The position numbers were made by a program, and so were the translations under genes. DNA of 64,000 nt, from contig CAVVXH010000010.1 in assembly GCA_963752155.1 (NCBI GenBank), positions 160,001 through 224,000 of the forward strand, written 5' to 3'. Under the pieces are notes generated by a model, which saw only the letters and a list, made by a program, of their open reading frames with translations, ran no database searches and had not been told where the DNA came from. This document shows, piece after piece, positions 41,417 to 45,003 of this stretch; position 1 is the first letter of the stretch, and each line of letters starts with the position of its first letter. The stretch is from an uncultured Parachlamydiaceae bacterium (lineage in GTDB: Bacteria; Chlamydiota; Chlamydiia; Chlamydiales; Parachlamydiaceae).

Positions 41417-41580
41417 TATACCAGGTTCGGTCATAAACTTGGATTTTGTGAACGCGTCTTTTTTCGCCTGTTGATTTGTGCAAAAAAGGCCTACAAACAT
41501 GTATGTCTCTTTTTTGCACAAATCAACAGACAAAAAAATCTGCATCCACAAAATCCAAGTTTATGACCGAACCTGGTATA
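41417..41580. mobile_element. MITE-like palindromic element, CCAGG(C/T)TCGGTCAT family (full form)
   Basis: Perfect 34-bp terminal IR 41417-41450/41547-41580, second 21-bp internal stem, TA-rich flanks; supplies the stop codon of the adjacent gene. Confidence 0.85.
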
Positions 41581-42691
41581 ACTTTAGAAGCTCGATTGCT
41601 TGTTGATGATCATGTTTTATTGCAACGTCCAATGCACTTCCAGATCCTTCTTCAGACTGATGAATATCAACATCGAGAACTTTAGCATTTTTAAGGATTA
41701 AACGTAGGACATCTATCAACTTTGGGTCTGCTGCTGATTGACGAAAGAGAGCATTAAGATCGCGGATTAGAACTTCATTGAATAACGATTCTCTCCTTAT
41801 TTGCTCATTATTTTCTTCAAAGAAATACTTATTTCCCCATAATGCACCTTGCAATTCAAATAGAACTAATAAATAGGCAGATGCCTTACCTGAAAAAGAA
41901 TTGTCTTCAGGTAGAAATTTTTGTTTAGCTGTTTTGATTTGGTACTTTGCTATCAAGGAAAGAATTTCTTTAGGAAATACCTTGAAATGACTTAGATGAT
42001 CAAACTTGGATAAAAATAGCCATTTATAGGAATCGTATAATGGTTTAGTGATAGAATCATAAAATTTTAGTCCACTTTTTGAAGGAGAAAGTTTTAACTT
42101 AGCGCCGTGTAGAAAGAGCGCTTGCGCCAAAGGAATATTTTTGATTTTTTCTACAACGATATCTAATGGGCTTCCTCCATCCATCATCAAAAGGTCGTAA
42201 ATATCATTAGAAGTATCAATATTAAATTGAGATCGATGCAGAAGTGAATTTACATCGATATCTTCATGAGCTAATAATGCATTAATGAGCTTCGGATCGA
42301 GATCAAATTTTTTATCAAGATTTTTATGAAAGATTGCATAAAAAAGGAGAGGAGGTAACGGAACAGTTCTAGGGCATTTGCTTTCAAAAATGTGATGATA
42401 ATAAGGTAATGACAAACCATTTATACATGCGGTAAATTTGTTTTTGTCAATATTTTTAATAAAATAATTAAGATGATTCGTCAGACGATTAGAAGTGAGT
42501 TGAGAAAGAATTTCGAGAATAAAAAGAGGAGAATCTTGAAAATGAATGTTATTTGTTTTTAATGCTTTAAATAAAGATTCACTCGTGTGGTTTTCTTTAA
42601 TTTCTTTATCAAAAATAGATATCAATTTGCAATGAGATACATAAATGTCTTTAGGTGTGAATTCACCCAATTTATTGCTATAATTGCACAC
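41561..42691 (-). CDS. Ankyrin/F-box-like protein, paralog 1
   Basis: DGGSPLDIVV and SALDVAIKH ankyrin-like motifs; HFKVFPKEILSLIAKY is F-box-like; start codon uncertain. Confidence 0.75.
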   Translation of the reverse strand: MCNYSNKLGEFTPKDIYVSHCKLISIFDKEIKENHTSESLFKALKTNNIHFQDSPLFILEILSQLTSNRLTNHLNYFIKNIDKNKFTACINGLSLPYYHHIFESKCPRTVPLPPLLFYAIFHKNLDKKFDLDPKLINALLAHEDIDVNSLLHRSQFNIDTSNDIYDLLMMDGGSPLDIVVEKIKNIPLAQALFLHGAKLKLSPSKSGLKFYDSITKPLYDSYKWLFLSKFDHLSHFKVFPKEILSLIAKYQIKTAKQKFLPEDNSFSGKASAYLLVLFELQGALWGNKYFFEENNEQIRRESLFNEVLIRDLNALFRQSAADPKLIDVLRLILKNAKVLDVDIHQSEEGSGSALDVAIKHDHQQAIELLKLYQVRS

Positions 42692-43799
42692 CGCAATTCT
42701 CCTTAGAATTTGATTGATGGAGATTTGTTACAATGTTTGCTTCTTTCAGAAGGATTATTGCTTGTTGATTGTGATGTTTTATTGCCATGTCCAATCCATT
42801 TTCTGATTCTTCATTAGAAGCATGAATGTCAATGTCAAGATCCCTGGCATTTATGATCATGCACTTGAGCGTATTTATATAATTAGGATCGGAGGCTACT
42901 TGACGAAATAAAATATCAAGATCCCTGGATTTGGTTTCTTCAATTTCAACCTTCCCCCTTCCAAAGGAGGGATTATCTCTCAACATTGCATATTTCAGTT
43001 TATCTAAAGCGATTAAATAGGGAGTAGGCATTTCAATAAAGGAGCCATCCTCAGGTAGAAATCTTTCTTTAGCATTTAAGATTTGATATTGAACAATTTT
43101 GTAAAGAATTTCCTTAGGGAAGATATTTAAATGACTTTGAGGATCAAACCGCGATAAAATTAACCATTTATATAAATTACTTAGAGTATTAATGATAGAT
43201 TTATAAAATTTTAATCCACTCTTTGATGGAATGAGCTTTAATTGAGTTCCATGCAGGAACAATGCTTGTGCAATAGGGATGTTTCGTGTTTTTTCTATCA
43301 CCATATCAAGTGGTGAGGCTCCATCCATTATCAAGAAGTTATCGATGGCTGGAAGAGGAGAATAAGAAAAATCTCGATTTATTGGTGTATTGATATCAAT
43401 TTTATCATGAGCGAATAAAATATTTATTATTTTAGGATTTAATCTAGAACTGACGATAGTACGAGGGAATATAGCATAAAAAATTAAAGGAGGTAAAGCC
43501 ATTTGTTTGCCTCCTTTTTTTAGAGTGAACAGCAAGCCATTCACACAAGATGCAAAATGATCTTGGCTAATGTTTTTAATAAAATAATTGAGGTTTTTTT
43601 CTTCACGAGATCTGGCGAGAGTTGATAGGATAGAGTAAACAAAGATGGGGGAGTCTTGAAAGTCAACTGAATCTTTTTTCAAGGATGTAAACAAGTCTGC
43701 ACTTGAGGTTTTTTTTAGTTGTCCTACATAGAGTTCCCGAATAAATTTTTTAGAATAAACATTGATTTCATTTGGAGTGAAGCTTTTTTGTACGTTCAT
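42678..43799 (-). CDS. Ankyrin/F-box-like protein, paralog 2
   Basis: DGASPLDMVI, HLNIFPKEILYKIVQY and NGLDMAIKH motifs; ends CGVQL. Confidence 0.8.
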   Translation of the reverse strand: MNVQKSFTPNEINVYSKKFIRELYVGQLKKTSSADLFTSLKKDSVDFQDSPIFVYSILSTLARSREEKNLNYFIKNISQDHFASCVNGLLFTLKKGGKQMALPPLIFYAIFPRTIVSSRLNPKIINILFAHDKIDINTPINRDFSYSPLPAIDNFLIMDGASPLDMVIEKTRNIPIAQALFLHGTQLKLIPSKSGLKFYKSIINTLSNLYKWLILSRFDPQSHLNIFPKEILYKIVQYQILNAKERFLPEDGSFIEMPTPYLIALDKLKYAMLRDNPSFGRGKVEIEETKSRDLDILFRQVASDPNYINTLKCMIINARDLDIDIHASNEESENGLDMAIKHHNQQAIILLKEANIVTNLHQSNSKENCGVQL

Positions 43800-43851
43800 G
43801 CTTTATATCCTTTTTATATAAAGGTAGAATACGCTAAATTAAATTATTTGT

Positions 43852-43928
43852 CAAGGACAACAAGGACAACAAGGACGGCAAGGACAAAAAGGACAGATCT
43901 TGAATACCGTCCTTCCTTGTTGTCCTTT
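43852..43928. repeat. AAGGAC 9-nt tandem array with inverted arm
   Basis: caaggacaa x2, caaggacgg, caaggacaa, aaaggacag, then gtccttccttgttgtccttt. Confidence 0.85.
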
Positions 43929-43941
43929 TTTTGCTTAATTG

Positions 43942-45003
43942 CTATTGCACAGTGCAACTCTCATCAGAATGCGATGCATGAGTCAGATTTGCCACAATTC
44001 TTGCTTCTTTCAAAAGCTTTATTGCTTTCTGATTATTACATTTTACTGCGATATCTAATGCATTTTCTGATTTTTCATTTAAGGCATGAATATCAATCCC
44101 AAGGATCTTTGCATTTTTAAGCATAAAATTTAGAGTATTTAAATATTGAGGAGTAGAGGCTGTTTTACGAAAAAATAGATCTAGATCGCGGATCTCGTCA
44201 ATGCAGTAGAAATTATTTGATGTAGTACCTATACCGTAGTAAACATTATCATTCACTATTTTATCTTTCAGGTTCCTTAAAGCTTCTAAATAAGGCGTTG
44301 GTTCCACAGAAAAAGTTTCGTCTTCAGGTAGAAATCTATGAGCATCATTTTGGATTTGATATTGAACGATCTTTGCAAGAATTTCTTTAGGGAAACTTTT
44401 GAAATTATTTTGAGGGTCAAACTGAGATAAAATCAGCCATTTATACGTATTATATAAAGGATCAGCTATGGATTTATAAAATTCTAATCCACTCTTTGAT
44501 GGAGCCAGCTTTAATTTAGCCCCATGTAGGACCAGTGCCTTTGCTATGGGGATATTTCGTGTTTTTTCTATTACTATATCTAATGGCGTAGCTCCATCCA
44601 TCATTAATAAGTCATAATCATCGTGGATTATAGCTTTAGTGTTAGAAGTATTTCGATTTATTTGTGAATTGACATCAATTTTATCGTTAGACAATAAAAT
44701 ATTTATTATCTTATGGTTTAGTCTAGAGTTAGTGATAATATAAGGGGCAATAGCTTTGAAAATCAAAGGAGGTAAAGACTCCAAACAATCTGTTTTTTGG
44801 GTGTGCGCTAAGCCGTTTGCACAGGAGATAAAGATATCATTATTTATGTTTCTAATAAAATAATTTAGATCATTTTCCTTGCGAGATTTAATGATATTTG
44901 ATAGGATGTTGTAAACAAAAAATGGAGTAGCTGAGGGGTTATCATTGTTCATCTTATCTATGGCTGTCAAAAGGTTGACATTTGTTGAGTTTTGTATATT
45001 CAT
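43942..45003 (-). CDS. Ankyrin/F-box-like protein, paralog 3, with C-terminal CaaX box
   Basis: DGATPLDIVI, FKSFPKEILAKIVQY and NALDIAVKC motifs; ends CTVQ-stop. Confidence 0.8.
   Translation of the reverse strand: MNIQNSTNVNLLTAIDKMNNDNPSATPFFVYNILSNIIKSRKENDLNYFIRNINNDIFISCANGLAHTQKTDCLESLPPLIFKAIAPYIITNSRLNHKIINILLSNDKIDVNSQINRNTSNTKAIIHDDYDLLMMDGATPLDIVIEKTRNIPIAKALVLHGAKLKLAPSKSGLEFYKSIADPLYNTYKWLILSQFDPQNNFKSFPKEILAKIVQYQIQNDAHRFLPEDETFSVEPTPYLEALRNLKDKIVNDNVYYGIGTTSNNFYCIDEIRDLDLFFRKTASTPQYLNTLNFMLKNAKILGIDIHALNEKSENALDIAVKCNNQKAIKLLKEARIVANLTHASHSDESCTVQ

Follow-up and report, generated by a model that had tools for sequence, protein, structure and literature searches.

What do three adjacent, related genes of an environmental chlamydia encode, and why do their products end in three different ways? 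The genes lie on the minus strand of a 64,000-nucleotide (nt) stretch of DNA, hereafter the window, which is positions 160,001 to 224,000 of contig CAVVXH010000010.1 (assembly GCA_963752155.1, an uncultured Parachlamydiaceae bacterium); positions below are counted from its first letter unless a contig (C1, C10 and so on) or locus label is given. An initial annotation had described three paralogs with ankyrin-like (ANK) repeats on both sides of an internal F-box-like motif, and had proposed that they are effectors hijacking the Skp1-cullin-F-box (SCF) ubiquitin ligase, with localization diversified by editing of a C-terminal prenylation (CaaX) tail. The descriptive part of this account was borne out. 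The three open reading frames (ORFs) lie where they had been placed, all three share the motif FPKEILxxIxxYQI, they are 45-56% identical in pairs over near full length, and they end in CTVQ (paralog 3), CGVQL (paralog 2) or without a Cys tail (paralog 1); comparison of the DNA also revealed the 3 extra nt ahead of the homologous stop codon of paralog 2.

Chimeric origin of a six-member family

We found three further paralogs elsewhere in the genome, P0004, P0006 and P0007, which bring the family to six with the shared motif FP-x-E-I/V-L-x-x-I-x-x-YQI. The trio and the other three form two clades (support for the split 100/100), and all six frames are open and can be aligned end to end. In the AlphaFold models, three ankyrin repeats (pLDDT, the predicted local confidence, ~90) lead into a long helix and, after a loop, into the box helix; one more helix then separates the box from a two-repeat ankyrin domain. 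Residues 26-167 and 270-344 of the model aligned with ankyrin folds at Z 8-9, and a separate search with the N-terminal half (N-half) gave Z 9-11 against ankyrin folds, which is middling for repeat folds. Thus, the ankyrin-like flanks are seen on both sides by structural alignment of the models, but they are weak by Pfam Ank, which fell below the cut-off in paralogs 3 and 2, gave nothing in paralog 1, and at E up to 1 was found in 14 of the 19 aligned rows.

The N-half matched a 239-aa ankyrin protein with a terminal box, in an alignment that spans the last repeat, the helix and the box (80 columns at 38%, hhalign probability 96.8), and the two group together in a tree with support of 97/92. 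Of 400 genomes from this order, the source genome included, 18 matched a profile of the N-half. One relative is named from Estrella lausannensis, and its sequence is identical to that of a protein in a genome assigned to the same order (G144), which places the source among the environmental chlamydiae. Judged by eye, a box of the form (L/I/F)P-x-(E/D) is present in 20 of 29 distinct relatives, a count that is biased since the profile was built partly from box-bearing rows. Nearly all of these boxes (19/20) lie no more than 40 residues from the C-terminus; one relative (L072) has two. The unfused form is present in the same genome as well, as an ankyrin protein of 260 aa that carries this box close to the C-terminus (C1:53256-54038, L106).

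The C-terminal half is a different unit, a two-repeat ankyrin module of 65-70 residues that no Pfam family covers. It is carried by several chlamydial families (P0008-P0038; L004-L018), in one to three copies and C-terminal on the carriers, which include Fic-like, N-terminal-Asn-amidohydrolase-like and methyltransferase-like proteins and a flavin-monooxygenase fusion. Among 31 phmmer matches outside the genome, 27 have the module; 12 of these carriers show a Fic-like motif and eight an N-terminal QGE motif, five of the eight matching N-terminal Asn amidohydrolase. Used as a lone query, P0035 returned no relatives. The modules of our six paralogs form one clade (95/92, with the bootstrap not fully settled).

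By homology, the protein is shown to be a chimera, with an N-half from a small chlamydial family of terminal-box ankyrin proteins and a C-half that is a portable two-repeat module. Since the two halves have different relatives, the ANK-box-ANK order is, on this evidence, that of a terminal-box ankyrin protein to which a module and a tail have been joined, and the box is internal because the module was added behind it. The unusual ANK-Fbox-ANK order that had been claimed is therefore real and traceable to a C-terminal fusion, but its middle element is not an F-box by profile, as discussed below.

CaaX tails and predicted host prenylation

We scored a tail as CaaX when Cys stood at -4, an aliphatic residue at -2, and a small or polar residue at the end. 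Such tails are found in paralog 3, P0004 and P0006, the latter two ending in CVIQ; paralog 2 has its Cys at -5, and neither paralog 1 nor P0007 has a tail. Both CTVQ and CVIQ fit the substrate pattern of farnesyltransferase. Conservation of Cys at -4, which the prenylation proposal needs, is partial: it is kept in three of six paralogs, drawn from both clades, but is absent from the other three, and we found it in none of the 29 distinct N-half relatives and in 0/27 of the outside carriers of the C-module. The CaaX tail is probably ancestral and selected, because it occurs in both clades although the linker ahead of it cannot be aligned.

The tail is not confined to this family. Across the genome, 12 of 2237 ORFs end in a CaaX-like pattern, as defined within this analysis, compared to a mean of 2.4 at offsets 1-40. 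With relatives collapsed, the excess amounts to nine independent families (P ~0.001), or eight without this ankyrin family (P ~0.004). Chance probably accounts for those of the 12 that resemble housekeeping genes. An unrelated, coiled-coil-looking gene cluster (C11:281603-286018, L107), with no meaningful Pfam match, has three members that end in CTLF, CILQ and CSIQ; from their ends, these proteins are further candidates for host prenylation.

The tail of paralog 2 is a separate case. A Cys tail of five residues can serve as a farnesylation substrate, yet just 7 of 192 human pentapeptides did so, and reactivity was predicted by the last three residues, with Gly not among the first-position residues given in the available part of that report (PMC11121372). 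By analogy, CGVQL is probably a poor prenylation substrate, because few pentapeptides are farnesylated and its Gly is outside the reported first-position residues.

Relation of the box to the F-box

Among the regions of the protein, the box is the most constrained, with a mean dN (nonsynonymous divergence) of 0.18 compared to 0.32 for the N-terminal ankyrin domain, 0.35 for the C-terminal one and 0.52 for the linker (0.25-0.52 elsewhere overall), and with an identity of 71% compared to 43-64% in other regions. Truncated F-boxes of Orientia have the consensus LPXEXXXXILXXLXXXDLXXX in the part of the source available to us (PMC11895443). P2, E4 and I9 of this consensus are kept in 6/6 paralogs, and position 21 is hydrophobic in all; the helix-1 signature L-P-x-E-x4-I is thereby retained in its P, E and I, with Phe rather than Leu at its first position. 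In a wider set of 18 boxes, an acidic residue at +2 (16/18) and a hydrophobic one at +7 (17/18) are retained.

A series of results weighs against a working F-box. L1 of the consensus is Phe and L13 is Gln in 6/6 paralogs, D17 is kept in only one, and across the 18 boxes proline alone is invariant. Pfam F-box was found in 0/6 paralogs and 0/19 aligned rows, and the trio is not among the 13 F-box matches of the genome; PRANC (PF09372) had no match above cut-off genome-wide and none at the paralog genes. Against a hidden Markov model of the genome's own F-boxes, the box scored at most 3.4 bits, while shuffled sequences reached 7.6, and a box profile searched against the PDB returned no F-box chain at E up to 10. 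The models give the box a helix of 19 residues, then a loop and one more helix, all at modest confidence (pLDDT 57-71), and show neither helix 2 nor helix 3 of an F-box. Wide fold searches listed no F-box structure, but they were dominated by ankyrin matches and say little either way. No SOCS-box family was listed for any paralog or aligned row at E up to 1.

We conclude that, by profile, the box is not a member of the F-box family and matches F-box helix 1 only. The F-box claim of the initial annotation is left with the helix-1 P, E and I and the strong constraint, but without a Pfam match and with a score within the range of shuffles. In cowpox virus, however, such a remnant can suffice: according to a review (PMC4353913, seen in part), cowpox CP77 binds Skp1 with the first F-box helix alone, and most contacts between F-box and Skp1 come from the first helix and the loop that precedes it. 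By this analogy, the chances that our box works like a truncated F-box are about even.

Two Skp1 homologues were seen in a chlamydial bin (G435; L087:1489-2025, minus strand, and L089). These contigs are probably mis-binned, because the neighbouring genes look eukaryotic or giant-virus-like.

Probable loss and remodelling of the tails

In the two copies that lack a tail, the frame is open and stops shortly after the last ankyrin helix, and its end now lies in repeat DNA. The last codons and stop of paralog 1 belong to a 164-bp element that has long terminal inverted repeats and TA-like ends and resembles a miniature inverted-repeat transposable element (MITE). Its other full copies are at C10:576435, C11:201603, C2:214202, C5:38494 and C5:163789, and besides the six full copies there are ~10 shorter palindromic remnants. 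The last three codons and stop of P0007 lie in a different repeat family (C10:53306 onward). A 151-nt contig from a public sequencing run spans the junction of paralog 1 and the repeat with zero differences, and it may derive from the source sample. Remnants of a Cys tail were not found downstream of paralog 1 or P0007, where scores were within the shuffle range. The repeats may have removed the tails, or they may have landed after tail loss.

In paralog 2, the tail has come to share its DNA with the next gene. Paralog 1 overlaps this tail by 14 nt, the upstream spacer being gone, and both its GTG start codon and an AAGGAG 7 nt upstream lie within the tail codons of paralog 2, an arrangement found for only 24 of 9324 out-of-frame internal GTGs. 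The matching DNA of paralog 3 has neither a GTG start nor an AAGGAG site. Thus, the tail of paralog 2 doubles as the ribosome-binding site and start codon of paralog 1. The overlap as a cause of the 3 extra nt was considered and rejected, since the paralog 1 frame stays open without them. The longest single-base run near the 3-nt difference is 3 nt.

Because both tail-less ends lie in repeats and the tail of paralog 2 overlaps the start of paralog 1, the tail states look like accidents, and damage caused by mobile DNA is a likelier reading of them than fine tuning. The adaptive tail editing put forward earlier is not supported.

Distribution of the family

We found no full-length homologue of the family outside its own genome by word search (six matches, all own), by phmmer across 1.84 billion representatives, in 399 further genomes sampled from the phylum (the C-module alone matched in 10, and one genome gave no score), or in scans of genome contigs and viral contigs. 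These results mean "not found" rather than "absent", and longer or shorter fused forms had no separate search. Foldseek yielded no match at E 0.001 or better. Among public sequencing runs, no RNA run with the family sequence was listed, and two DNA runs yielded short pieces only, none exactly covering the paralog 2 tail. As part of the overall explanation that we tentatively prefer, the six paralogs would be specific to the lineage of this environmental chlamydia, within the searches made.

The locus itself has changed relative to a sister genome (G133, L115), whose cysK locus lacks the trio. A cystathionine lyase-like gene comes next after cysK there; in our genome it lies ~97 kb away, and the trio comes after cysK (40412-41401), which puts the trio at a rearrangement point. 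G+C content is ~32% in the trio region compared to ~39% for the contig.

Comparison with known effectors

The closest general likeness is to the ANK/F-box (PRANC) proteins of poxviruses and Orientia, multi-copy families described, in the portions of the sources at hand, as having N-terminal ankyrins, a non-ankyrin helical linker and a truncated F-box (PMC4353913, PMC9414399, PMC11895443). The terminal-box relatives of our N-half share this layout, and whole-protein Atlas matches of the trio include poxvirus ANK clusters. Unlike PRANC adaptors, however, our family has its box in an internal position in 6/6 members, and the 120-150 residues behind it hold a second ankyrin domain and CaaX; the family has no PRANC profile match, and it mostly lacks L13, D17 and L18 of the Orientia consensus.

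Legionella pneumophila AnkB resembles the family in combining ankyrin repeats, an F-box-type motif and a farnesylated tail, the tail being predicted in our case. In AnkB, an N-terminal F-box is followed by ankyrin repeats, whereas the order here is ANK, box, ANK, tail; PDB searches found no sequence match to AnkB. Natural loss of CaaX is known for AnkB of strain Paris, which gained a replacement motif (PMC5506055, in the part available), while our tail-less copies end in repeat DNA.

Within the phylum, the NEX1 and NEX2 F-box families of Parachlamydiaceae are ubiquitin-system mimics that expanded by lineage-specific birth and death (Domman et al., PMC4209131, seen in part). They have N-terminal full F-boxes with leucine-rich or tetratricopeptide repeats, whereas our six paralogs are outside the Pfam F-box proteins of their genome; the main text of that paper does not mention CaaX or prenylation. 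Finally, Shigella OspC and Legionella AnkX join a catalytic domain to a C-terminal module of ankyrin repeats that serves in targeting; a catalytic domain with C-terminal ankyrins is also seen in the Fic-like and amidohydrolase-like carriers of the C-module, while the trio has an ankyrin-box unit in place of a catalytic domain. The modelled C-module aligned with the OspC3 ankyrin domain at Z 7.7 (root-mean-square deviation 2.3 over 66 residues), tied with many other ankyrins, and this suggests a structural likeness only.

Proposed explanation and alternatives

We favor, at a confidence a little short of even, the reading that the six chimeric proteins are host-directed adaptors, farnesylated by the host, with a box that engages Skp1 and with tails that were lost by genome accidents. 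A small ankyrin protein with a terminal, one-helix F-box-like box was fused, as the homology indicates, to the portable module and a CaaX tail. The product would be secreted into a eukaryotic, probably protist, host, where the CTVQ and CVIQ copies would be farnesylated and held on a membrane, e.g., that of the inclusion, as the motif and Legionella AnkB suggest. The box would most likely use its loop and first helix to engage Skp1, in the manner of truncated poxvirus boxes, although here the odds are about level; the ankyrin domains would then bring host targets to SCF, or the protein would tie up Skp1. Tails would have been lost piecemeal by ordinary genome accidents, with repeats now supplying the ends of two copies, and the tail of paralog 2 may have been remodelled into the observed translation start of paralog 1. 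It counts against this reading that the sctU- and sctV-like genes carry frameshifts in this assembly. A bolder version, which we think unlikely, would give environmental chlamydiae a repertoire of host-prenylated effectors of their own, assembled from exchangeable parts; here, a module at home on Fic and amidohydrolase-like enzymes would have been placed behind a one-helix box that binds Skp1, so that a membrane-anchored SCF adaptor presents its box between two substrate-binding domains, and repeats would switch anchoring on and off.

On the unlikely side, yet with several results behind it, is the alternative that the box does not bind Skp1 and is a capping or dimerizing helix, or binds another cullin adaptor or host protein, so that the family would be membrane-anchored double-ankyrin scaffolds with no role in SCF. 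Every F-box and PRANC profile test fails, the residues of helices 2 and 3 are missing while the box helix continues into the next segment, at least three relatives stop before the box, which is thus dispensable in the wider family, and the Atlas matches for the box part score no higher than 0.81, which makes them leads at best. Against this alternative, the box stands at a free C-terminus in most relatives and is doubled in L072, like a portable binding motif; the acidic and hydrophobic positions are kept, the region is the most constrained one, and no SOCS-box match was found either.

The model of the initial annotation, in which SCF-hijacking effectors came to exist in membrane-bound, weakly bound and soluble versions through adaptive changes to their tails, seems to us quite improbable. 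The cuts just after the last ankyrin helix, with frames kept open, fit it, as do the ratio of nonsynonymous to synonymous divergence (dN/dS) of paralog 1 against all others (0.32-0.39), the reactivity of some five-residue tails, and AnkB-Paris, which kept its function without CaaX through a new di-lysine motif (PMC5506055, as far as available). But dN/dS is an average across long branches from which tail loss cannot be dated, the new ends are repeat-derived with no recognizable replacement sorting motif evident, P0007 has also lost 8 residues ahead of the box, few pentapeptides are substrates and Gly is outside the reported set, and the tail of paralog 2 has a competing role as the start of paralog 1. 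Very doubtful, in our view, is a decaying relic, or a set of assembly errors, in a genome shedding its secretion and effector genes. This would accommodate the split conserved genes and export-gate frame changes described below, the dN/dS of 0.62-0.69 among the three youngest paralogs and the lost spacer upstream of paralog 1; it is at odds with six open frames that align end to end, with dN/dS of 0.23-0.40 for distant pairs, with the unaltered repeat junction in the 151-nt public contig (possibly from the source sample), and with an in-frame 3-nt difference, which is untypical of sequencing error where no run exceeds 3 nt.

Genome context

The source genome (3.13 Mb, 22 contigs, 80% complete) has, besides its Pfam F-box matches, six nucleotide transporter matches and an SctJ-like gene, a content that fits an intracellular bacterium and speaks for host-directed proteins. 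On the other hand, the sctV-like gene shifts frame twice and the sctU-like gene once, and long single-base runs are missing at all of these breaks. These export-gate genes (C10 ~589.6-592.7 kb; L031, L116) are intact in the sister genome. Two of 11 conserved genes tested are split (three own-genome rows dropped), and one nucleotide transporter gene is split. These breaks may reflect assembly error or decay.

Around the trio, a 1610-aa protein (50325-55157, minus strand) 5 kb away carries a ubiquitin C-terminal hydrolase domain (PF00443, E 6e-29) at its C-terminal end and is a likely deubiquitinase effector, judged by this domain; domains of this type have been noted for chlamydiae (PMC3482391, in the part seen). 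A heavy-metal P-type ATPase (47348-49855, minus) is broken across several short ORFs, from their translations, and an M17 aminopeptidase ORF (32221-33447, minus) covers 215 of 310 catalytic-domain positions; these represent more frameshifts or decay. Near the trio is also a PIN-domain toxin with an AbrB/MazE-type antitoxin (VapBC-like; 45963-46627, minus), and the spacer between paralogs 3 and 2 contains a purine-rich repeat (43852-43895) with a 9-nt unit and ~270 matches in the genome.

Table 1. Features of the trio locus, in window coordinates
Feature	Position	Strand	Description
Paralog 3 (P0001)	43942-45003	minus	353 aa; three ankyrin repeats, long helix, box, linker, two-repeat ankyrin module, CTVQ tail
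Paralog 2 (P0002)	42678-43799	minus	373 aa; C-terminus CGVQL, Cys at -5
Paralog 1 (P0003/P0005)	41561-42691	minus	376 aa; GTG start within paralog 2 tail; YQVRS end, no Cys tail
N-terminal ankyrin domain, paralog 3	44503-44928	minus	residues 26-167; related to small chlamydial ankyrin family
One-helix F-box-like box, paralog 3	44353-44394	minus	residues 204-217
Box, paralog 2	43080-43121	minus	
Box, paralog 1	41936-41977	minus	
Portable two-repeat ankyrin module, paralog 3	43999-44196	minus	residues 270-335; common to Fic-like and amidohydrolase-like proteins
CaaX tail CTVQ and stop, paralog 3	43942-43956	minus	
Five-residue Cys tail CGVQL and stop, paralog 2	42678-42695	minus	overlaps paralog 1 start codon
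AAGGAG Shine-Dalgarno-like site	42699-42704	minus	7 nt before paralog 1 GTG, inside paralog 2 coding tail
164-bp inverted-repeat (MITE-like) element	41417-41580		6 full-length copies in genome; overlaps paralog 1 3' end

Significance

In titles and abstract openings, with subscription papers mostly outside the scope of the search, we found no literature on an ANK-box-ANK-CaaX arrangement or on prenylated chlamydial effectors. The ingredients, i.e., ankyrin repeats, a truncated F-box, CaaX and natural tail loss, are all known already, and the family is a new domain arrangement of a known kind of effector. What makes it interesting is that the box is internal and only one helix long, that the module is portable, and that CaaX ends are in excess across the genome. 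If the internal box binds Skp1, then F-box mimics can be a single mid-protein helix that is invisible to Pfam; counts of ubiquitin-system mimics in chlamydiae would then be too low, and ~20 terminal-box relatives would be added to them. The shared C-module marks uncharacterized Fic-like and amidohydrolase-like chlamydial proteins as likely effectors that share a target or activator, and the roughly five-fold excess of CaaX-like ends suggests that chlamydiae, like Legionella, use host prenylation.

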